Shown here: positions 1-59,962 of the stretch, one piece after another
How positions within the stretch are numbered: the first letter of the stretch is position 1
How the letters are laid out: each line of letters starts with the position of its first letter
Assembly (NCBI GenBank): GCA_045837725.1
Contig: JBEWZL010000003.1
Span: 248,001 to 312,000, forward strand
Length of the DNA: 64,000 bases
From: Vermamoeba vermiformis
Taxonomy: Eukaryota
Reading direction: 5' to 3'
The notes under the pieces: generated by a model
The model's input: the letters and a program-made list of their open reading frames with translations, nothing else
Told to the model about the DNA's origin: nothing
Database searches by the model: none
Position numbers and translations under genes: made by a program

Positions 1-2758
1 CCATCTATTTAAATAGACGTTAGACCAGTTTGTTTTCGTCGCACGTATTCTTATTTGACTTACTTGATTGCCATAGTTGCCGAATGGCGTGTACATTTGA
101 CCGCCCATGACCTGCGTGGATAAAGGTGCGCCATTGGGCATTCCGTTGCTATTGAACGGCTGTTGTTGCTGTGGCTGAGCTTGAGAAGCGAACATGTCCC
201 AGCCAGTAGGTCCTCTATTAACACTCGTATTATTGGCAACTGTCACTAAGGGAGGCATATTGTTCGGTTGAGAACCAGGGCTGGATCTGATCTCGGAACC
301 AATGGGCTCAGGACGAGCTTTAGAAGGCGATGCCACGTCAGTTTTGACGTTGTTGCTCGAGCTAGGCTTGAAAAGAATGACTTCTTCGTCCTCTTGATCC
401 ATTTGCGGTACTGGCTCCATAGACAAGTTGCTCGCGTCAATGTGCAGCATGCTGTTGTTGTTGGACGAGCCAAACGGGAAGTTGCCGTTAGCGAGCATGG
501 GCGAGTTCAAAAACTGTACACCGCTCTTGGGCAGTGATGAGATAGGCGTGCTTTGAATCTCCTCGGCATCCATGAGTGGTTGATTCGCTTTGAGTTGACT
601 CAACTTGTTCACAGCTTGGTCTACTGGCAATGAAACAGCATTAGAAACGCAACAGGACTAACTTTTGAATCAGACTTACCTTGAGTATTGATTTGATCGT
701 CATCCACGGACCTCAATGAGAACTTTCCGAGAGCAGTATTGTAGTACACGATCTTCTCGTCCTATTTAAAATGTTAATAAGACTAGGCAAGTCGCGTAAC
801 GTAAGGGACAGGACTTACAGTATCGGGTACTTGATAGTTAGCGAGAATCAGACCGAATGCTTTGATTTTAGTCATGCGCTTCAAGATGCCAAGTACGCGG
901 TCGTCAATGTTCATCGGGTTATTGTCCAACATGGCCGCGGCTTGGAAGTCCACCAATTGGAACGACTCTTTGAGAGGCAGAAAACCTTGAAGCTCGAGCT
1001 CTTCGACTAGAGGTCGCTTCATGCTGGCACTAATGTCTTCAGCCATGTTGTTCGCAAGAATTCCGAGAATGTAATTCAAGAACGAAGCTGTTGTCTCGCG
1101 CAATGCCATCCATTTAGCCTATTGATAGATTCGTTAGCACGTGATCATTTGAAATAATTATGATTCAATTACCTCGGAGAACTCTGACTTTTTGAGGTAT
1201 AAGCAGTTGTATTTCATCCAATCGCTGAAGATGGACAACGGCTTCAACAATTTGGGCAGCTTTTGGTTAGCTTTAGTGATAACACGCATCGCAATCAAGT
1301 ACGTCTCCAAAGCCAAGGACAACGAGTACTTTTGAAGCTCAGTGCGCTGACCAATCTCAATGTAGCTCGGTGTGATACCGTCGGGCACAACATTGATGTT
1401 GTTGAACGTGAAGATATTGATCACGAAGATCTTCAACAGGACTTGTTCGTTGATGAGGTCCTTTCTTAACAACTGTTCATATTCGGATAAAGCCTTAGTT
1501 TCTAATTCAGGCCATGACTCCAAACTACAAAGACTCATTAGATCCAATTCAACTGACAGCAATACTTAGTTACTACGTACTTATTCTTCGTGAACAGAAT
1601 ACCGTGAAGTCGAACAAACTTGGATAAGAATGAACGAACCTCAGGCGCGATGTCAGCGTCTTCGATAAATTCTTTTTGTAACTTTCCACCACGACCACTA
1701 TACACGATAAAGGTTAGCTCTAGCGCTATAATATACTACTGCTATTAACGTACGATGATTGGGAAGAGGACTGTGAGCCTTCTACTTTAGCCTTATTCTT
1801 TTCGAGTAACACGTTAATGTTGTCACGTGCTGTCAAGAACGGATGCGTAACAGCCAAGCTGCGGAAGTAGTGATAAACAGCGTTGAAATCATCGTCGCAG
1901 TACGTGTTCAATACGGCGAGTTGATTGTGAGGATTACCCCACGACGGCATCAACTTCAACGCTCGTTTGTAGTAATTGGCGGAGGCCATCCAATCACGTG
2001 ACTTCGGGTTTACATCACGAATGTAGCGCGCTATAAATAGACCGATACTATTATTGTTTGAAAGAAGGTAATAGGACGGTTAAATTGACGTACCTAGATC
2101 TCCCAAATAGGTCAAACTTCGATGACAGCTTAAATATTGCTTGTACAAGGTGCTGTTAGTGTCTGAAATGTCCTCAGGCACGGGCTTATCGAGCTTTAGA
2201 TTGAAGGTCGATTGGAGTTTTGCAATGAAATTGTTGTAGAATTGACTGGAAGTCTCCAAGAATGCCTTGAAAGCAGATCCTGTTCGATCCGTGTTTTGGC
2301 TTTGTTGACTTTCTTGGCTTTTTGAAGTTGACTATTGAAGCAATTTTTATTAGAGGAAGTCGCTAATAATTGATTTATTGGACTTACCTTTCGCAGGCGC
2401 TTGCGGAACTCTTCGATCACTTTGTAGAATACGTTCTTCCACAAATTAATTTCAACATCTTTGCTAGTTGCAAATTCGTAGTCTAAAAATACGAGCTTCT
2501 CATAACTTTCTCTCAAACTAAATAAAAAATTAGTGGCAGATTCGCGAGAGCAGTCATAGAACTGTCACTTACGCATCACGGAGTTGAAAAGCTGTCTTAT
2601 CTAAAGGGCCACTCGCTTTAGACGCTGTTCGTAATTGCTTCTCTAACTCGAGAGTTTTACTAAAATAATTATTATTAAAATTAATTCTGAAGGTCTTCAA
2701 TAATTATTTAAAATTCTGCTTACGCAAATAATTGCTTGGTAATATCGTTTTCTTGCAT
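1..2758 (-). CDS. Est1/SMG5-SMG7 family (14-3-3-like TPR) NMD/telomerase-associated protein; multi-exon, 3' end runs off the window
   Basis: Spliced reading MQENDITKQLFA|KTLELEKQLR...LRESYEKLVFLDYEFATSKDVEINLWKNVFYKVIEEFRKRL (EST1 domain) and YYKRALKLMPSWGNPHNQLAVLNTY...AVYHYFRSLAVTHPFLTARDN (EST1 DNA/RNA-binding motif). No PIN domain is visible within the window. Confidence 0.85.
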
Positions 2759-3084
2759 TAATCGTGATAGAGTTACATATAGCGTCGAGAAAAAAAACAG
2801 ATTTCGTTACTCCACACGATCCAAACAGAGCTTCCTTTAGAACCGTTTTAAATCTGCTAATAAATCTGTACTGCACTAGTCCTTTACAAGACTGCTGTTG
2901 TTTACACGCTAGAGGGAAAAATAAAAAACAAAACCACGAACAGACGAACTCCGCGAAACCCAGCGGGGCACGAGAAGGAACGTGAAACGGTTCGCCACTA
3001 ACATTTAGTGCCAAACTAATGCCTTCACCATCTTACTGTCAACCAAGGCGACAAAATTCTCCCACAATTTTTTTCAATTTCTTT

Positions 3085-3290
3085 GGTCGCTAGATCAAAT
3101 TGGTCAGATCACCATCTTCTATTCTGACATTTGTCTGCCCGCATCGCGTTTATGGTGCACCATTGGCCTTCGGGAGGAGTCCTGGAGGTCGAGGGTGATA
3201 ATGCAAGATGAACCGCCCGAGGCTGGTGACAGAGCAGGGAAAAGTCTTCGCCGAGATGAGCGATGGGATAACAGACGGGTGTCTTATCTT
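3085..3290 (+). ncRNA. Signal recognition particle (7SL/SRP) RNA: S-domain with helices 5, 6 and 8; 5' end atypical
   Basis: Helix 6: CACC..GGCCTTCGGGA-GGAG-TCCTGGAGGTC..GGTG, GNAR loop at 3176-3179. Helix 8: AAGAT-GAACCGCCCGAGG-CTG-GTGA-CAG-AGCAGGG-AAAA-GTCTT, with GNRA loop at 3226-3229 and the SRP54-binding AGG/AGCA internal loop. Helix 5: GACATTTGTCTG/CAGACGGGTGTC and CATCGC/GCGATG, whose G-U pairs only work on the + strand. Followed by a T9 run. Confidence 0.85.
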
Positions 3291-3297
3291 TTTTTTT
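3289..3297 (+). terminator. Pol III oligo-T terminator of the SRP RNA gene
   Basis: T9 run a few nucleotides after the 3' strand of helix 5. Confidence 0.6.
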
Positions 3298-3458
3298 CCG
3301 TAAATGGTGAACATTCACGATGATAATCTGCTTTTTAGGTCATGACGAGGATTTTGTACGAAAGGGTACTGGCGGACGTAGAATCCTAAAGTGCAAGAGG
3401 CCTCTTTTGGACCAAATTAAAGAGTCTGTTTAATAGTTGAATCTCGTTGGTTTTTATT

Positions 3459-6400
3459 CTAATATCTATCATACCAGTAGGAATTATACGAGCTTGTATC
3501 TGTAGTCGTAGAAATTCGTCAGTACAAATCGCCTATCTCGCCATCAACCAATAGCCTTACCTCTAACTCGGCTTAAGCCAGGCTGTAATGATGCTAAATT
3601 CATATAACCTTCGTTCATTTTAGCGCCCTTTGCCTTCGCCTTGCCTCCTTTCAACGGCGTGTCTTCGGGCCACGCAGCACGACAATAAACGCACGTGACG
3701 TCTCTGTGACTGGTTTTGGCTTGTGATTTCCACTGGTTGAAACACTCCTCTAGTAGATAAAATACCTTGTAAGGAATGACATACTATCAAACCGCCAAAA
3801 AGACTCACCGTGTAAGTTTTGACCGCAGCTTGTCTTGCACCACACTAACTTGTCGTTGGCTTTCAAATCTTCGTAGCAAATAGGACTAGACGAATATGCT
3901 ATCAATATATACTAGTCCACGTCTTAAAATGATATCAATACTCACCACATCGAATCGTCGATCGGCTTTCGTTTAACTGATCCGTCATCATCCTCGTTTG
4001 CCTTCTTTTCGGGAGTCTTACCCATGACTTTGTCAAACGTATCTCGAACGTTCTTGGATGCCTATAATCATATTATTACGATAATTAACATAAGTTAACT
4101 TCGCCTTTGTTACGTACAAGTACAGCGGTGGGCTTCGCTGGGGCACTCTTGAAAATCGACTCCAGTTCTTCAGTCAACAGCGCATTTTGATATATTAATT
4201 GTGAGTCTGACGGCACGCGCAGTACTTTCAAGAAAACAAAGAGCTACAAGAAAAAAGAAGTTAGATCTAAATGCCAGGAAGTTTGAGATGGGCCCGCTGC
4301 AATTAGAACGGCTCTTGAGTGCACTGAGAGTGTTAGACTTTGAAGAACCAACGGCAGTGCCACTAACTGCTGCTCACGAACTTACAATGTGCTTGCATAG
4401 ATTTCCTTTGGCGTGATCAGGACAAGTACACGAAGGAATGTGCGATATCGTTACTGTATAGACATTGCCCACAGAACCGAGTACATAAAACTTCTGCTCA
4501 TGTGGATTCGTTGGTGGATCTCGATCGATCAAGTACATGCGTTGCTGCTGTGCTCTGTAAATTCTATCACGAATCGCCTTAAAGTTACCATTGTTAACGA
4601 CCGAACAATGACTTGTCTAAACAACGTACTTGCGTAGGCGCGGATCTGAACCTGCCCAACCGCTTTTCTGGTTTTGCCTTTGGAGCTTTCGGCTGCTTCT
4701 ATTAAGAACAGTTATAGTTACAAATAATACTAATCGAAACTCTACCGACGACTATCGCTTAAAAAATTTAATATAAACAGTTTATTTAAAAAGGGAATTG
4801 TCGGCAAAATCGATTTTATACCTTGCTTTCGCCTGATTCAGCGACAACTTGTTGCTGTGGCGCATCAGCAACGAGTTGCTCAGCAGCATGTTGCACGGAA
4901 GCGTGTGGTTCCTCGTGGTGCGAGACAGCTTCGTGGCTGAGGCTGTGGTTTTGAACCAAGTGCTGCTTTTGTTGCTCGTGAACGGCGTCATATTGAGGCT
5001 TAATGTCGTGCTCGACTTTGTCTTCAACTCCATTGTGAGTACCGTTAGCGTAATTAGACTTGGAAGCGTGATTGCTCAAATAATCTAACGGAGACAACTG
5101 TTGAGTGTCAACGGGCTTCTGTTGTTGCTGTTGAGGCATTTGCGAAGTCATGGGCTGCAATTGTTGCATTTGCGAGTATTGTTGTGCCATTGGATTCATT
5201 GACGACATTTGAGACATTTGGGACATTTGCTGTCCTTGTTGGTGCATCATAGCTTGAGGAAGCATTTGCGAGTATTGTTGCGCCATTGGGTTCATGGGTA
5301 TCGGCAACGATGGATACTGTTGAGGCAAACCATAAGTGCCCTGTTGCATATGAGGAGGCATAGCGTATTGGTTAGGCATTTGATAACCAGGAAGCATTTG
5401 CGCGTATTGCTGCCCCATCGGGCCCATGGATATCGGCATTTGATACATGTTCATGGCTGCTTGTTGTGCTTGAGGCATTTGGGTGGTGAATGCGCGTTGT
5501 TGCATAGGCGAGTGTTGTTGCATGGGAAGAGGTGTTCGGGTTTGAGCCAAAACTGAGGCCGGAGAAGATCCGATCGAGCTCGATTGTACGGCAGGAGACT
5601 TAGGCAAGCCAGCAGATGATTGACGCTTGCTAGGAGTCTTTTGCTTCTTTCGAGGACGCTCATCCTCTTCCTCGCCAGAATGGTAAGAGGCATCGTCTTC
5701 TTTGTCTTCGTCGTTCTCTTCTTCGTTGTAATCGTACTCCAACGAGATCTTGCGCTTTCTCAAACGTTTCTATAATATAACCGTTAATAATCTATTACAT
5801 CGTGCATATCGATAAATTAAATTCGAACTTCACTGTGAGTTAAATCCACTTACCGTCGGCAGCGAGGATTCGCTCGTTACAATAGTTTCAGTTTGCTCAA
5901 CAGGTTGTACGCCTTCGGGCAAAGGAATTGTAACCTTTTCAACTTCGCCATTCAATGGCAACTAGAGATGAAATGAATGATTAGTTTTCGGTCGCTTCAA
6001 CCAAATCCGGATCTTAATAAATAAAAAAGAGCCGCGTTGAACGAGCAGTAGAGATGAGTAATAAACATTCTCTCTTTCATTAAATAATATTTTATGGCTA
6101 TAAACTTAATTGATAAAGATCTGCCAATGACAAAATATCGAAATAATAATTCCATGCCAATTAGGAAGAATAAGACATGCTAATGAAAGTCATGTCATTC
6201 TACTAGCCATTTATTTCAATAGTTGCTCTTTTTTCTCGCGCAGTTAAAATCCGATGTAAAATCTGAAAAGTTCAAACGGAGGAGAAAGAGCCGAATATTT
6301 GTGCGTTAGAATTAAATAATGTATGAGTACTTATTTCTATATTCATTTCTCTTTTATAATAAAGCCACGTACCTTCTCATCGAAGTGCGTTGCGCGACGT

Positions 6401-10721: not shown

Positions 10722-10805
10722 CGACGTCGATGGGATTCGAACCCATGCGGGACAAGCCCAATGGCTTAGCAGGCCACCACCTTAAAACCACTCGGTCACG
10801 ACGTC
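10722..10805 (-). tRNA. tRNA-Ser(GCT)
   Basis: Cloverleaf with GACGTCG/CGACGTC acceptor stem, anticodon arm GTGGC-CTGCTAA-GCCAT, long variable arm, T-loop GGTTCGAATCC, and a downstream T6 terminator. Confidence 0.97.
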
Positions 10806-21549: not shown

Positions 21550-24207
21550 ATGGAGGAAAACGGAAGCAAAAGGAAAGCTGAGACCGACGCAAATAGCAGA
21601 TCGGGCAGTAAGATTTTTTGAAACAAAGACGTATGGCAATTTAAATTAAATATTTAATTTTATAGAACGTATTAAACAAGATCGAGGTGAAGGTAAGTTA
21701 AATGGGGTTCTTCTCGCAAGAATAATTTCAATTTTTTTGTGGTACGCTAGTGTTCAATTTACACACGGCTCATACTCCTAAATAATATAATTGTATTCTT
21801 ATTGTGTACGATTAGATAGTATTACGGTGATAAAAGAAGGAGTGCTTCGCGTGCTTATCCCGGACAAGCAACAACACGGCTGGAAAGATGCTACGGTCAA
21901 ATTATATTCGAACTCCGATTTAGAATGGAAAATAACATCGAGTATCGAGAGCGTACCTTCTCATATGAAATGCGGACGCAGTCGTGTTAAGCCTGGCGAA
22001 TCCGCTGTCCCAGTGCCTGATGCCGATTATGTGGGCTTGTTTTGCCTTAGAAATATTCGTCAATATTGGAAGTTTATTATGCAAAACACTCTATTGTTTG
22101 CTTCAAAAGATCCGAATGTAAGTGAATTCTTTCTGAAGATCGATCTGACCGGATTTGTTTAAACAGGAAGGAGAAAGATGGATGCATCTCATTAATTATA
22201 CGAGATTAAAATGTACAACAGAGTTACGTAAGCACAACCATCCTTTGACTCCTTGCGAGGCGGAAGACATTGGATTTGTTCCGCATCCGTCGGATCACCC
22301 GAAGATTGGTCCTTCAGTTATAAATAGCTCAGCTGAAGACCTCGAGTGCAGTTATTGTGGTACACATATGCATGCTTGCAAAGGTATTACCTAAATTTCA
22401 ATCTAGATCCTGGAGCTCAAATTTATTGTGTTCTATTTTTAGCTCAACACTGCGAGTTCTGCAATTATGATATCTGTGACGAGTGCGCACAAGAAGTAGA
22501 TCGACAAGTAGCACAGCTGGTCCATTCCTCAAACCACCCACAACATCCGTTAGTCAAACTCAACACCGTCAATGACCCGTCATGGTTCACGACTGACTAC
22601 GACACCTCGTACATTTGCGATGTGTGCAATGTACTGAGCAACGGACCAGTGTATCATTGTGTCGAGTGTGGCAATTACGACGAGTGCCCTAATTGCTTCA
22701 AACAGCTCGTGACAGATCCGCCAGAGGAAGAAGTGTCTAATGATAACGAGATGCAATTAGACGTGGGATTGCTGTCACATGTCATTACCAAATCTGGAAA
22801 TGTCTACGAACTCAACAAGCGAAATAATTAGCAAAGTATTGCAAGCAGCGAGCATGATCACGACAAAGTGTTGGGACGTGTCACAGATCGACTCCGCACC
22901 AGTACCTTCAGCGTACTTTGAAGTGACATTCCATCATCTCGAAGGTCAGTACGTGAGTGTGGGTGTTGGCAATCAGATCTTCGTTCAGAATCAACTGCTC
23001 GGCTACGAACAAAACAGCTTCGGGTACTGCAACAACGGACACGTGACTCAAAACGTTGGCACGAACTTGCAGATGTTACCTTCTTACCGAAATGGTACGG
23101 CACTGAGTACGATACTTGACATTAATCGACACTTTTGTTTGACAGGTGACACTGTTGGCGTTGGAATGTTATTGGACTCGTTCAACATGCGTCGATTGTA
23201 CTTCACGAAGAACGGACAGCTGCTTGGTACGCCATTAACATTCGTTCCAGATCTAAACTAATAACTAACTAAATCTATGACTAGGATGCTTCAATGAACG
23301 AGTTCATGTTGGCATGGATTGCTTCCCAGGCGTGTCATTCACTCCGAACACGTGTCAACAACTCAAGTTCTCAGTCAACACGACAGGACCATTCATGTTC
23401 GATCCAAGTTGTATTCCTGATTATAGAAGTACGAGAGAAAACTGGTTCGAGCAGATGCCCACTGAACTTATTGTAAAGTGCCTCTCAACAGCGGCTCAAA
23501 TGCACCAACAAGTCGCCGAGTTTTTCAATGTACGGTAGCAAGATATGTTACATTACAAGCATCCTAATGCGTTTCGTAGATCTCGAAGACATTATCATCT
23601 GTGGCAAGCAATAACGAGATCTGGAAGTCATTGTTCTTACAGAGGTGGCCGATGCAAAACTCGAAGTTGAAGATCAAATCGTGGATGAAGTTTTACAAGC
23701 GACGTCATGACACTTCTAAACGAGTCATTGATGACATGTGGCACAACGCACCCCAATACAGGGATGGCCCTCATTTCATTGGTAAGATGGTCATACTAAC
23801 TTATGACGCTCAGTGACACTTTTGACACTTCATTCTCAGAAAATTGTGACTTCGAGTTTGAGTGTCCGTTGATAGTCGAGGATTTATTTTCAAAGGAAAT
23901 CGACGAAAAAGGCAACGCCCATTGCGATAAATGCAATAAAACAGTGTACAAAGGTAAGAACGTTTTCGATTTTTCGAGGGTTAGGGTTTGACATCCAATT
24001 TTTTTTTTGACAGTTGAAGACAAAGAGACGTTAGAGCAATATGCTGCAATGGGCCGCTGCGTGAGTTTAGTTGTTCAGCCAAAATTGCCGTGGAGAGTAC
24101 TACCTACGCGCCATGGCGGAGTTATTTCAATGCCTCATACGCGCAAACAACCTGCAGTTCCCCCACCTTTCCCCAATGTACAACAGAGACGCACATTCAA
24201 AAAATAA
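21550..24207 (+). CDS. PH-like + ZZ-type Zn fingers + SPRY + F-box protein, paralog A (one apparent frameshift near 22828)
   Basis: PH-like VIKEGVLRVL..WKDATVKLYSN..ERWMHLIN; ZZ-like YICDVCN..VYHCVECGNYDECPNCF; SPRY YFEVTF..VSVGVG..LGYEQNSFGYCNNG..YRNGDTVGVGM..LYFTKNG; F-box FEQMPTELIVKCL..ISKTLSSVASNNEIWKSLF. Confidence 0.8.
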
Positions 24208-24337: not shown

Positions 24338-27014
24338 ATGGAAGGTCGGGGCAGCAAAAGAAAAGCTGCTAGCGAAGACGAAGAAGCGCGATCTGTCAGT
24401 AAGATTTTTTAATTTTTTTGTTCCTAATTAGCAATAATAATTTATTCGAATCTTATAGAACGGGCAAAAGTCATCCATAGTGAAGGTAAAATCTCGTGAA
24501 TTATTCAAAATTGCTGGCGCTAGGAATTGGAAACAATTTTTCTAGAAATCGAAACCTCTTACACTGTATTCAACCTCTTAAATACAGACAATTCGAGCCA
24601 ATTTTGCCGAAGGATTCTTGTAAAAGAAGGCAAATTGAAGCTGCTCAATGAAGCGACAGCCCGTTGGACAGATGTAACTCTCAAGCTGTATTCAAACGCG
24701 GATTTAGAATATAAACTTGATCTACGCTCTCAAGATGGTGAATTGAAGCGAAATAGCAAAAAAAAGTCAGGATTCTATCGGATCAAGCCGAATCAAACTG
24801 CCGCACCATTTAACCGTACAGACTATGTTGGTGTTTTTTGCATAGTGAAGACTAAGGATTATCTGGCGCATAGGAATGAAGTTCCGCTGATATTTGCTGC
24901 GGCGGATCCGAACGTAAGAGAAATTTCCAAATTAAAGAAGATCTGAATCCAGGCCAGCTAACTTTCAACTGCATAGGAAGGAGAAAAATGGATGCTCATA
25001 ATCAATTATACTCGATTGAAGCGTACTCTTGAGCTCGCGAAGCACAACCACCCCTTGACTCCATGCCAACCGCAATTTCCTTTCAGCGCCGTTGAGAAGG
25101 TCGGTCCTTCCGTCATCAATCTGTCAAATGGAAGTATAATTTCCTGTTATTCGTGCGAAACGAACTTTCGGATCTCGCCAGGTAAGTTCGAAAAAACGTT
25201 TTCAGGGAACGGGGAAAATAAATTATTAATAATTATTTTTGATCAAAGGCCTTCGCTGCGAATTCTGCAATTTTGATATTTGTAGAGAGTGCTTGGCTTA
25301 TGGCTCCACTACGCCGCTAAATGGTATATCCAGGGCTCCTTCAATTTTATCGCCGTCCATTCCCGAACTGGAACGCTCAGCCAATCACGTGCAACATCCG
25401 TTGATCAGATTTGACTCGGTCGAAGATCCGTCGTGGTTTTTGCAATCAAAGTACAATGATGGTAGCTACACTTGCAACGTGTGCCTAGAAGAAAGATACG
25501 GACCTGTGTACCATTGCATGGACTGTGGTGGCTATGAAGAGTGTCTTGATTGTTTCAGACCTGTCAAAACAGAACCTGAGACAATGAAATCACTGCACGA
25601 AAATGAGGACAAAGAGATGCAATTAGATGTTGGATTGCTGTCACGTGTCATTGCCAAATCTGGAAATGTCTTCGAGCTCAACAAACAAAGTGAACGCAAG
25701 CCACCACAAGCAGCGAGCATGATCACGACAAAGTGTTGGGACGTGTCACAGATTGACTCCGCACCAGTACCTTCAGCGTACTTTGAAGTGACATTCCATC
25801 ATCTCGAAGGTCAGTACGTGAGTGTGGGTGTTGGCAATCAGATCTTTGTTCAGAATCAACTGCTCGGCTATCAACAGAACAGCTTCGGGTACTGCAACAA
25901 CGGGCAGGCGACACAGAATGTTGGCACGAACTTACAAAACTTTTCTGCTTATGGCACTGGTACAGTCACTTTACTCATATCAATAGACTCAACCAGAACT
26001 GACACTTTGTTTGACAGGTGATACTGTTGGCGTTGGAATGTTATTGGACTCGTTCAACATGCGTCGATTGTACTTCACAAAGAGCGGACAGTTGCTTGGT
26101 ACGCTATAGATACGTCATTCTGAGCTTTGCAAGAAGACTAATTGTACGATTAGGTTACTTCAACGAGCGAGTTCGTGTCGGCATGGATTGCTTCCCAGGC
26201 GTGTCATTCACTCCGAACACGTGTCAACAACTCAAGTTCTCAGTCAACACGACAGGGCCATTCATGTTCAATCCAAATAGTGTTCCTGATTATAGAAGTA
26301 CGAGAGAAAACTGGCTCGAGCAGATGCCTAATGAGCTTATCGTTAAATGCTTGGCACTGGCCGTTCAAATGAGTCCCGAAGAACTTTCTCGGAACTCAAC
26401 CATTCACGCCAAACAAGCGGTAGAGTTTTTCAAGGTATGACGCATTACGTTTTTTTTCTGCATTGTTAACTCGTTTGGTGCAGGTTTCAAAGACTATTTC
26501 ATCCGTGGCGAGTAATAACGAGATCTGGAAGCCGTTGTTCTTACAAAGGTGGCCGGTGCAAAACTCGCAGTTGAAGATCAAATCGTGGATGACATTTTAC
26601 CAGTCCCATTACAAAAAAGTAAAACGAAAGAAAACACAAAACCACTTTGAGTATAATAATGATCGTAATTTCATTGGTAAGACATCCATACTAAGTTACG
26701 ACGCTAATGACACTTTTGACAATTCATTTCTCAGAAAATTGTGCCTTCGAGTTTGAGTGTCGGTTGTTGAAGATTTAGAGCAAATCGACGACAGCTGCGC
26801 AATTTGCTCCAAATGCAATAAAACAGTGTACAAAGGTAAGAAAGTTTTCGACTTTTCGAGGGTTAGGGTGTGACTAATGCATGATTCAGAATCGTTAGTC
26901 AAATTTGTTGCTATGGGCCGTTGCGTGAGTTTAATTGCCAAACCAATTGATACTTGCCTCGTGTGCAACTGTAACCCAAGCCATTCGACTCCTGAGAGAT
27001 CCAAATACAAATAA
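24338..27014 (+). CDS. PH-like + ZZ + SPRY + F-box protein, paralog B (tandem duplicate; apparent frameshift near 26760)
   Basis: Same exon layout and domains as 21550-24207; the SPRY exons are nearly identical at the DNA level. Confidence 0.8.
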
Positions 27015-50707: not shown

Positions 50708-53700
50708 TTAGTCGTCTTCAATCGCTTCGTCTTTCGCGACCAAGATCTCCATGTTCAATTGCTTTTCCAACTCGCGCATTTCTTCGACGTATAAATAGCT
50801 TGGTTTGCTGCTGAATTGCAATAGCAGACTTGGTTTCATGCCTGGATGCATGTACGCGTTTCTGACACCCTCGATCTGATGGTGGTCCAAGATCATCTCT
50901 TCAGTCACGTGACCAACATTGAACAGCTCGAAGTTCTTGTGTTGCAAGCGCAATAACTTCATAGAAACAGCGGCGATAATAGTCGCCCAGGCCATGATAA
51001 ATGTCAACGCGGCACACGGTACCGAGCCCTTGGACAAGAAGAAGAACATCATCGTGAGCTGGAACAACACGAGGGACGCGAAGAGCGAGTTGATGACACT
51101 CGTGATGATGTTGCCGGGCTTGCGGTTGTCAGTCGGGTGCACCAAGACCATGTTCGACTTGTCAATGAACAACTTGACACCCAGATAGAACGTGGTGACA
51201 GGCAGAATGATTGGCACGACCAAGCCATAAGCAATGCCGATAGTAAAGGCCAGCATCACAATGCCGAATTGCACGCTCGTTTGGAAGTACTGCAAGCGAG
51301 TCTTGATTGGTCGTTGTGTTTGCATCATGTACTTTCGGAGCTTCTTGAAGCCAAAGCGGATCAAGTTGCCAATTTGGGCCAAGTCCGCCAAACAAGTCGT
51401 GACAGTATCTTTGATCAGATAGGCCACCAGAATAGCAGTGACACGGATGTAGTTAATGTTCTCGAAGACCAAGAACAGATCGAAGAAATGGTTCGTCTTG
51501 AGCTTCGTTGTGACGGTTGAAAGCAAGCCAAAACCAGTGTCGAGCAGCGTCTTGAAGATCAACAAGTTGAGCAGCACGAAGAAGAGGTACTTTTGGTACG
51601 TGCTTCGCTCCAATTTGCCCAATGAATGAGGCTTCTCCAACTTGGCAATGGCACGCATTAGTGCTGGCAAGATCAGGTAGAACACGACGATCAACAACAA
51701 GGGCAACATGGACTCGAGGAAGATCAAGACAGGATTGGGCAAGCCTAACATCCAGTTGAGTGAAGGATAGTTCTTGGCAAAGGTTCTGATGTTGCCAAAG
51801 TAGATCAAAGGCAAAGTCCACAAGAACGAGATTATGACCACGAGCAAGTTGGCAATGACTTTGAGAACCAAGCGCACGGGTTGTGAAGTGTTCAAATTAG
51901 CCCACAACAAGCCCTCGGGAGGAGCAATAGCGGGCTTAACGACCCATTGTTGAGGCTTCAACTGTTGGAGAATTGACACGTCACCAATCTCGTCAGCAGG
52001 GTTGTAGTGACCCAACGCGTTCTTCTCGGGAGCTTCAATGTCACCACTGGTAGAAATTAAGGGCGACAGTGTGCCCTTGGCTGGACTTGGTGGCACGCTG
52101 TTACCGCCGCTGCCTTCTTTGTTGCGCTGAGATTGACGACGTTCAGCCATGCGCTGAGCTTTGACCATACGACCACCAAAGAAGCCAGCAAAGTCATCGT
52201 CTTCGGGCAGCTCGTCGCCAATACTTCCGTCCAATGCCACGTGCTCGTTGTCATCACCGTGCATGTGCTGACTTGAGGTCAATTTGCCATCAGCCATTTG
52301 TCTTAGGAACTGTTCTCGGCGACGAGGCTCGTTGAACTCACGCACCCACTGCTCAGCATCAATAGCGGCAATGAAAGTAACGTGAACTGAGTGAATAGTA
52401 GAGGTATCTTCGATCAGCTTGAGCTCTTGTTGAATGCCTTCTAAGCGACGAGTAGCCTTCAAATAACGATCGCGCCAGTAAGCCGGATCGTCCCAGTGGC
52501 CCATAGCTCGAGGCCACAGCATGCATCGAACAGCACGCAGCCACGAAGAGGTTGTCTGAAACTCGGTCAGCATCCGTTATCGACCGCGTGTAACCAAGCA
52601 ATGAGACTTACATGAACTTTACCAAACTCTTCAGCTTTTTCCAAACCGTTCAGTGCTCGTCTACGCTCCTTAATAGCGGCAATAATTTTGTTCGAGCGAA
52701 CTGCGGGATGTACACCCAAGATCTGAGCAAAAAATTAGTACTTGCGGTTGGAGTCTCTAAAAATAAAGAACGGGCACGTCGGGTAATTAGAGAAAGAACA
52801 GGACACAGAGATCCGGCAAAAAGCAAAAAAATTAGTGGGGCGCTGCCCGGAATCGAACCGGGGCCTCTTGCACCCTAAGCAAGAATTTTACCACTTAACT
52901 ACAGCGCCTTTGGTTGAGCGCCGATTTCGCAAATTTCGCCTCCCGTCCGTCACCCAGGACAAAAACGACCTACAACAAACTGTTACTTACGCGCTTGGGG
53001 AACAACCGATTGAAAAACGATGCCACGAGTTGCTTGTTGGCGGTTCGTGGCAAGTTTGTAATGTAAACCGTTCGTTGTTGCGCCAAGGGCTGCTCTTGTC
53101 GATATTTGTAACGCGCCTTAATTATAGCATCTTAGCGTTAATTCATCGTGCACTGATTCGCGTAAATGCAATTAGTTTGGTACTTACGTCCAAAAAGAAG
53201 TTCTGGAACCTGCTGAATACAAACAAGCCAGTCGCGGTGAATACGAACGTCAGCGCCAAATGGACCCATAACATGCCTGATTTGGCAGGAATAGTAGAGG
53301 CCGTAGTATATACAAAGTTTTGGTTGAAGCGATCCGGATCTGTGTTTTTTCAATTAGTCTAAAAATTCGTATCTTCAATAATACGCTACTTCTATTGCAC
53401 ATTAAAACCGTACTTGCACGATAATAATTTGCAAAAATTAAATAACTAGCTTTAATTACGTACCGATATCAGTTTTGCCTTTTTGCGTCAAGTGGATCGG
53501 CAGTAAAACGAGCATGCTGACAACGGAGCAAAAGCTCAAGTATATTAATAAATGTCGTAGAAGCTTGAGATACAAGTATCTGTATAATACTAGGGTAAGT
53601 TACCGTGACACGTTAATTCACAATTAATTTTTTTGATCTATCGTAATCACGCACCCATTCAAGCCTGCTATCTTCCTAAATTCATTATCTTCCATAAACA

Positions 53701-59120: not shown

Positions 59121-59962
59121 CTACCAGCTATAACAATCATAGGCTTGATATTTTTTCAAATAAGCCTTCTTGGAGAACTTGTCGGACCAAAAGCCATTCG
59201 GTAACTTTCGAACGAAGTAAGTTTGGACCACGAAGCCGTCTGTAACAACTAATCGTCCGCCTTGGTTGCCAACAACTGCATTTAAATTCACCCATGATTC
59301 CTTCTCGTAGCCTTGACAGTTGCGGCATTGAGCACGTAAGATCGGTTTATCTTCTGAAGACAAATCCAGCTCAATATCGGAGGAAGAATGCGAGAAATTG
59401 TGGCCAGGTGTGAGCACGCCATCAGTATTGCGTAGTACACGATCCAAGTCGACGCTTGAAGTGTGGTACTGGCCGGATTTGTCGCGACAATCAGCAGTTA
59501 GAATATTATCTTGTAATCGTAGGTTTTTGCAAGTTAAGCTAAAATTAATATTCAATAACCCATAGCTTTGCCATAATTCGGGTGAACTGATCCACGCGTG
59601 ATGCCTAAAAATTAGAATTAATTTCTTTCGAATAAATTACAAAAGAAATAACGTAATAGCAAATTGTTTGGATTGACTTACCGTTTTGAAATCTGCGAAA
59701 GTGCAATTAATGTATCAATATCTTTAAATAGGCAGGAGGCAATATGGAAGAATAGCTCTTTCAATCCGAAAACAGCTGAAGTAAGAGCAGGATCCAATGG
59801 CTCCAATTGCTTAGTCTCTTGCTGCGATTTTTTCGTATTATGACGCTGCATTTTAGTGTTTACCTCATTAACCACTTTGTTCTTTTTGGGTTGTGGTGCT
59901 TTAGGTAAATTGTCAGTTTCGGATGCCTTTCGTTTGGCCGCAAGTCTGGTCTTGGGAGGCAT
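59121..59962 (-). CDS. F-box + CVNH (cyanovirin-N homology) lectin protein, 2 exons
   Basis: Basic N-terminus; F-box-like VFGLKELFFHIASCLFKDIDTLIALSQISKR|HHAWISSPELWQ spliced in frame to the two-repeat CVNH NFSLTCKNLRL..LTADCRDKSG..SSVDLDRVLRNTDGVL / NFSHSSSDIEL..LRAQCRNCQG..SWVNLNAVVGNQGGRL. Confidence 0.82.

Follow-up and report, generated by a model that had tools for sequence, protein, structure and literature searches.

An SRP RNA gene apparently reduced to its S domain in a probable amoebozoan, with a tRNA-like leader that is most likely promoter DNA

The textbook account gives the signal recognition particle (SRP) of eukaryotes a second function, elongation arrest by its Alu domain. 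Whether a eukaryotic lineage can do with an SRP RNA that has no Alu domain is the question raised by a locus in a 64,000-nt stretch of DNA (hereafter the window, numbered from its first letter). A sequence-only reading had described there an SRP RNA with no recognisable Alu domain, preceded by a leader resembling the 5' half of a tRNA. The leader was proposed to be either a captured tRNA promoter that is processed off or a tRNA-mimic module replacing the Alu domain. The analysis reported here points to a different arrangement, to which we assign a probability of roughly two in three: the locus would be the working SRP RNA gene of its lineage, cut down to the S domain, and the leader would be promoter DNA.

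The S domain itself is readily recognised. In an Rfam covariance-model search of the 64-kb window, the locus scored 97.1 bits with Protozoa_SRP (gathering score 65), and the only other RNAs among the three at gathering score were two distant tRNAs. When 3118-3300 was searched alone, Metazoa_SRP gave 81.3 bits (gathering score 70), and the alignment placed model positions 104-247, of 299, on window positions 3133-3276. Because the human S-domain construct spans 105-249 (PMC5224484), this match corresponds to an S domain and nothing beyond it. The sequence-only reading had seen a convincing S domain with helices 5, 6, and 8, and these searches bear it out. The Rfam match, the fold, and conservation in relatives place the RNA at 3126-3283 on the plus strand (158 nt). 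This segment folds into helices 5, 6, and 8 with a z-score of -3.56 (1 of 200 shuffles was equally good). Its two ends close helix 5, with G3126 paired to C3283, and the terminal stem has 12 continuous pairs.

The S-domain hallmarks of eukaryotic SRP RNA are present. Helix 8 (3205-3248, assigned from the Rfam alignment) carries the SRP54 motif and a GNRA loop, the GUGA tetraloop at 3226-3229; helix 6 (3158-3197) has a GNAR-type loop, GGAG at 3176-3179; and the 5e loop (3268-3271) corresponds, in the alignment, to the model's 5e bulge of 3 nt. By homology, these elements are the predicted sites of SRP54, SRP19, and SRP72, respectively (for the human 5e loop, see its treatment in PMC5224484). 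Directly 3' of the stem lies a T9 run (3289-3297), the putative Pol III terminator. Both this run and the T7 run at 3068-3074, which had been thought to bracket a transcript of about 205 nt, are found in the sequence. A circular SRP RNA of the Thermoproteus type was considered and rejected: there is no bulge-helix-bulge at the locus, the 12-pair terminal stem has by eye no 3-nt bulges, and the outer flanks vary.

Relatives come from one metagenome scan with an exact helix-8 pattern, which divergent copies could escape. The scan returned 19 loci; the same pattern had no matches in viral contigs and none in prokaryote genomes. Four of the 19 (L002, L010, L012, and L016) have an S domain almost identical to the window's, with the same terminal stem and T run at its end, and the two with upstream DNA start like the window's RNA. 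They amount to two distinct loci: in their overlaps, L010 is the same as L002 and L016 the same as L012. Synteny of L012 with the window extends to both flanks, an SMG7-like gene lying upstream and a SWIM-finger gene downstream. L002 (1440-1685, minus strand) is an unlinked short SRP gene between Nudix and kinase genes, and its body is identical to that of L012. Because L010, the equivalent of L002, shares one contig set (Ga0209960) with L012, L002 is probably a second copy in the species of L012; the window's species may also carry such a copy. Both matches in this contig set have the short 3' end. A sequencing run, X21, adds a third, related organism, and the comparison covers three species at most. 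Among the other 15 loci, 12 match a full-length model end to end in Rfam, and the remaining three comprise a match of 228 positions, a cut-off locus, and a partial one. Two side observations concern the scan as a whole. A full-length SRP gene in L005 (1-2083) lies within a cluster of six tRNA matches, and L001, L004, L009, and L017 have a eukaryote-type SRP RNA attached to sequence of bacterial appearance (L009 with an RNase P RNA, L017 with an rRNA) and are probably assembly chimeras.

Conservation within the lineage coincides with the RNA. The window matches L002 and L012 at 149/160 positions of the RNA body, and identity falls sharply outside 3125-3284 save at two upstream boxes; at 3111-3124, just 6/15 positions agree with either locus. 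L002 and L012 agree with each other at 157/157 positions in the body, 18/20 just upstream, and 4/10 further out. Helix 8 is invariant in both. Six of the 57 predicted pairs vary among the three loci, all of them in helix 6 (17 pairs), and all stay paired, one having changed on both sides. With two distinct bodies, this covariation is not significant, 158 of 500 shuffles being as high. The helix-6 arm of X21 differs again and can still pair by eye, and a T run follows the stem in the X21 loose ends too.

The part that is missing is the Alu side. Metazoa_SRP positions 1-103 and 248-299 have no counterpart in the alignment of 3118-3300. The helix-8 motif lies 85 nt from the 5' end, against 163-179 nt in 10 full-length loci, and 46 nt from the 3' end, against 74-94 nt in the same loci (the 12 full-length-matching loci minus L003 and L007, each of which has two copies). 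Compared with full-length protist SRP RNAs, about 80 nt are lost on the 5' side and about 30-50 nt on the 3' side. The terminator comes 45-50 nt past the helix-8 motif. The UGUNR Alu motif, which the sequence-only reading had found lacking in the 5' part, is indeed absent between 3060 and 3126; the 250 nt upstream hold two matches (-230 and -89), each of them 5' of the T7 run, and L002 and L012 have none within 200 nt of helix 8. Pairing of upstream with downstream DNA in the manner of an Alu domain is no better than in shuffles (0.26, 0.67, and 0.24). An Rfam extension of the Protozoa_SRP match to 3032 was discarded: it can be made only with a 36-nt insert spanning the T7 run, its posteriors are low, and it covers a region that is not conserved. 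The core proposal, that this eukaryotic SRP RNA lacks an Alu domain, is supported, in a form more extreme (about 160-170 nt) than the one first put forward.

A full-length, Alu-containing gene could lie elsewhere in the genome, in which case the short RNA would be a conserved second SRP-type RNA. We regard this as unlikely. The metagenome scan, with its exact helix-8 pattern, could have missed a divergent copy, and the mature short RNA was not seen in the four sequencing runs compared. Against these points, the 3' end is short in 4/4 lineage matches, the pair from a single contig set among them, and the two unlinked copies, identical over 157 nt, are as expected of a main housekeeping RNA. It appears reasonably probable that the only SRP RNA of this non-parasitic eukaryote is a mere S domain, some 160 nt long.

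The nature of the leader depends on where transcription starts, for which the two conserved upstream boxes are informative. The first, TCCCACAA at 3060-3067 on the plus strand, is a putative distal promoter element that resembles the DUSE of Dictyostelium. It is identical at 8/8 positions in L002 and 7/8 in L012, within DNA that is otherwise diverged (2960-3059 matches at only 26/102 and 37/100 positions). In its general form, TCCCAYAA, it precedes the G of TGACA (G3126) by 66 nt in the window, 68 nt in L002, and 67 nt in L012. The 8-mer occurs 7 times in the window's 128 kb against 6.3 expected, as in shuffles; the evidence is therefore its fixed position within diverged DNA. None of the six other WCCCAYAA sites in the window has a GATCA box at +47. 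The second box (AAwTG/T...GATCA.C; 3097-3113, plus strand) is a candidate proximal promoter element. Its GATCA, at 3107-3111, falls 47-48 nt past the upstream element and 19-20 nt before G3126 in 3/3 complete loci, and GATCA also appears in the X21 loose-end consensus. The two-box pattern had one match in viral contigs, in phage-like DNA, which was judged to be chance.

Spacing can be calibrated on other genes. DUSE-like elements occur in 2 of the 15 metagenome loci outside the lineage, L013 (1749-1756, minus strand) and L019 (720-727), both full-length SRP genes of other eukaryotes, at 63 and 61 nt before the Rfam 5' ends. Accounts of the Dictyostelium DUSE place it about 60-63 nt upstream of small-RNA starts, in both Pol II and Pol III genes (PMC7919456, PMC3188802), with the consensus [AT]CCCA[AT]AA in PMC3188802. 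L012 alone agrees with that consensus in full, the sixth base being C in the window and L002. Because DUSE-type spacing, as in L013, L019, and Dictyostelium, is applied here, the predicted start is A3121 or G3126 (3121-3126, plus strand), past the leader. A CCCA-core 8-mer lies 61-68 nt upstream of the nearest purine starts in 3/3 loci, compared with the 60-63 nt typical of a DUSE, and the spacing to G3126 (66-68 nt) is a few bases longer than in the two calibrators. A start at 3085, in comparison, would sit 25 nt from the upstream element. The T7 run falls within the putative promoter and is not conserved; L002 and L012 lack it and have no T run of at least 4 between element and RNA start, so that the 205-nt transcript is not supported. 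No snRNA or other small-RNA gene was found by Rfam in the window for comparison of the element. Judged from sequence, the leader at 3085-3120 (plus strand) is most likely untranscribed promoter DNA of an external, DUSE-like type, together with spacer.

Expression data bear on the start and on the RNA itself. Of 23 sequencing runs, four (X1, X2, X5, and X21) were compared. The first three contain spliced SMG7 contigs 95-99% or more alike to the window and no contig on the SRP gene; a 160-nt RNA without poly(A) would easily be missed by such libraries. In X21, from the relative, reads cover 3125-3285 at a peak depth of about 36-fold. Ten reads pass 3125 upstream (median 35 nt) and 11 pass the T run (median 50 nt), no pile of read starts or ends is listed, and first mates are equal on both strands. 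With the last exon of the convergent gene (SWIM finger) ending roughly 170 nt downstream, antisense read-through can explain these reads, as can DNA.

The X21 reads nevertheless leave some room for a start further upstream, at about 3085-3107, which would yield an RNA or precursor of 180-205 nt with a variable 5' extension and maybe an Alu vestige. Their upstream overhang is shorter than three other loose ends (46-51 nt). A hairpin with an AGAUC loop can form in the window and in X21, on different stems, and the agreement of L002 and L012 just upstream of the RNA, like the outer two pairs of the D stem proposed for the leader, which both loci keep, would fit a transcribed extension. Such a start is doubtful, however. 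The upstream element would then be just 25-47 nt away; in L002 and L012 the hairpin is down to 3 pairs, and the three leaders fold differently; no leader folds better than shuffles (fractions 0.13, 0.59, and 0.42); and the X21 reads, equal on both strands, also cross the terminator, for which antisense read-through or DNA would suffice.

If the locus is the working SRP RNA gene reduced to its S domain, with promoter DNA as leader, a factor would bind the TCCCAYAA element, and Pol III would initiate at 3121-3126 and terminate in the T run. The resulting short RNA would bind SRP19, SRP54, and SRP68/72 at helices 6, 8, and 5e, these sites being assigned by homology, and the S-domain particle could recognise signal peptides and target ribosomes to the ER. 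Unable to reach the elongation-factor site, the RNA would provide no RNA-based elongation arrest. In a review, the relevant statement is that the Alu domain aids targeting efficiency and leaves translocation capability unaffected (PMC8230904). A split SRP is a further, improbable variant, in which the self-closed S-domain RNA is made here and pausing has moved to a separate partner in trans, either an Alu RNA standing on its own with SRP9/14 or, as in trypanosomes, an RNA resembling a tRNA; nothing found in this analysis points to such a partner.

The tRNA likeness of the leader fares worse. The letters quoted for it are present in the sequence, as are ATGGTGA (3304-3310) and ATCTG (3326-3330), the proposed pairing partners downstream. 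A tRNA 5' half, acting as a processed-off internal promoter or as a mimic in place of the Alu domain, has in its favour the U8-A9/D-arm pattern, which is uncommon (about 0.3% per 100 nt), and a precedent in the trypanosome SRP, which in the description of PMC2800229 employs a tRNA-like RNA. Counting Watson-Crick pairs only, the pattern turns up 3 times on the two strands of the window (128 kb) and 2-8 times per window in a set of 10 simulated ones, with 17 occurrences once G-U is allowed; it is mildly unusual, but was chosen after the fact. ARAGORN on the whole window found only two tRNAs, both away from the leader, and Rfam gave no tRNA match at E<=10 on 2800-3600 or on 3075-3135. The D-arm pairs of the leader have a probability below 0.2 in the ensemble. 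By the usual rules of tRNA structure, the anticodon arm fits neither register: the original parse leaves a 4-nt stem strand, and a 5-nt parse puts U at 37. The B-box consensus, G[AT]TC[AG]ANNC, is absent from 2901-3800 on either strand, and the leader shares only 11/38 and 6/38 positions with the 5' halves of the window's two tRNAs.

Comparison with the relatives largely refutes the tRNA-half reading. U8-A9 is replaced by CC in L002 and AC in L012, and the D-loop GG by AG in L002, L012, and X21; the D-arm pattern is absent from L002 and L012, and the A-box letters are not conserved. Leader identity over 3085-3105 is 12/21 with L002 and 10/21 with L012, far from the conservation of the RNA body. 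The downstream pieces can pair back to the leader in a fold of 3085-3335, as had been noticed, but they are intergenic (3304-3330, plus strand), lie past the terminator, and belong to a region that is not conserved (14/41 in L002, 13/43 in L012, and likewise in X21). The tRNA look would be a chance GATC ahead of the conserved GATCA box; only the first GATC needs chance, because the second belongs to that box. We consider a tRNA half highly improbable, and a tRNA mimic in place of the Alu domain falls with it. In treating the leader as promoter DNA and not as part of the mature RNA, the first of the two original options was right in spirit, although the leader resembles an external DUSE-like promoter and not a captured tRNA half. 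A truncated, non-functional pseudogene, to which the failure to observe mature RNA in the four runs might point, is equally improbable in view of a body so conserved across species between flanks only 26-37% alike, with all changed pairs kept, both promoter boxes kept, and synteny.

The neighbourhood indicates what kind of organism this is. The SMG7-like gene (1-2900, minus strand) is divergent from the SRP gene, has introns of 55-64 nt, and is covered by spliced contigs as far as 2900, which leaves about 160 nt to the upstream element; L012 has the same head-to-head arrangement. On the other side, the SWIM zinc-finger gene (about 3460-4680, minus strand) converges on the SRP gene. Among eight homologue clusters that were looked up, the three best-scoring named SMG7 come from Cavostelium, Protostelium, and Thecamoeba; others are from Stenamoeba, a glaucophyte, and a green alga, with an ATPase match from Nematostelium. 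In a second set of 10 clusters, the sole organism-named one is an ATPase from Flabellula, and an ESM Atlas search gave the SMG7 family only. The host is probably an intron-rich amoebozoan and not a dictyostelid.

The window has a GC content of 41.2%, near the 41.7% tabulated for Vermamoeba vermiformis, which gives no more than a hint at the species, and holds several other features. Its tRNAs, tRNA-Ser(GCT) at 10722-10805 and tRNA-Pro(AGG) at 52837-52908, both on the minus strand, are ordinary. A 12-nt exact match to this tRNA-Pro at about 3391-3402 was equalled in 4/1000 shuffles, but 4/102 window tiles (its own included) score as high, and it was put down to chance. Two similar genes with cysteine-rich repeats, at 22337-23261 (with a SPRY domain) and 25233-26021, are apparent tandem duplicates. 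On the minus strand, an ORF at 59121-59636 encodes a CVNH (cyanovirin-N homologue) lectin domain, and an uninterrupted 622-aa ORF at 50708-52576, in an otherwise intron-rich region, encodes an RSN1_7TM (OSCA/TMEM63-type) channel domain.

Among known systems, the RNA shares helices 5, 6, and 8, the 5e loop, and the T-run end with the families of Rfam clan CL00003 (RF01856, RF00017). Its upstream element is like the Dictyostelium DUSE in being an 8-mer with a CCCA core that precedes the inferred start by about 60-68 nt, and differs in its companion, a GATCA box at -20 that is not the TGTG box (PMC7919456, PMC3188802). The discussion of the DUSE in PMC7919456 does not expect it to be conserved outside Dictyostelia, and the present host appears to lie outside that group. 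A DUSE-like promoter appears to be used outside dictyostelids, which would offer a handle for small-RNA genes of other amoebae.

Reduced SRP RNAs take several forms. Fungal SRP RNAs are described with reduced helices (PMC4605306, PMC8137916). The Encephalitozoon RNA, as presented in PMC5499648, likewise has no canonical Alu domain and has upstream rather than internal promoter signals, but it is only about 60 nt shorter than usual and keeps an uncommon Alu domain, whereas the window's RNA retains nothing of the Alu side. Trypanosomes, in which 7SL acts with the tRNA-like sRNA-76/85, share a defective Alu function; as described in PMC2800229, the Alu region of their 7SL is retained in truncated form and pairs with the separate tRNA-like RNA. 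The window's RNA lacks that region, and no tRNA-like partner was found in cis at the locus. A literature search, the scope of which lay outside Rosenblad 2004 and the SRPDB protozoan tables, found no report of an Alu-less SRP RNA in any amoebozoan. The published cases of Alu loss found are in reduced parasites. If true, a clean cut at the S-domain border in an intron-rich amoeba lineage, maintained by selection in three species, would serve as nature's own test of targeting without arrest in a eukaryote, and would show the fate of SRP9/14 once their RNA site is gone. The closest parallel is in the diplomonads Spironucleus salmonicida and Giardia intestinalis, whose SRP RNA is reported in PMC3916229, as an unpublished result, to lack the Alu domain. 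These are reduced parasites without SRP9/14, and in Spironucleus also without a recognisable SRP72, whereas the host here is an apparently intron-rich amoebozoan whose SRP RNA keeps the 5e loop; the loss of the Alu domain in its lineage would be independent of theirs.
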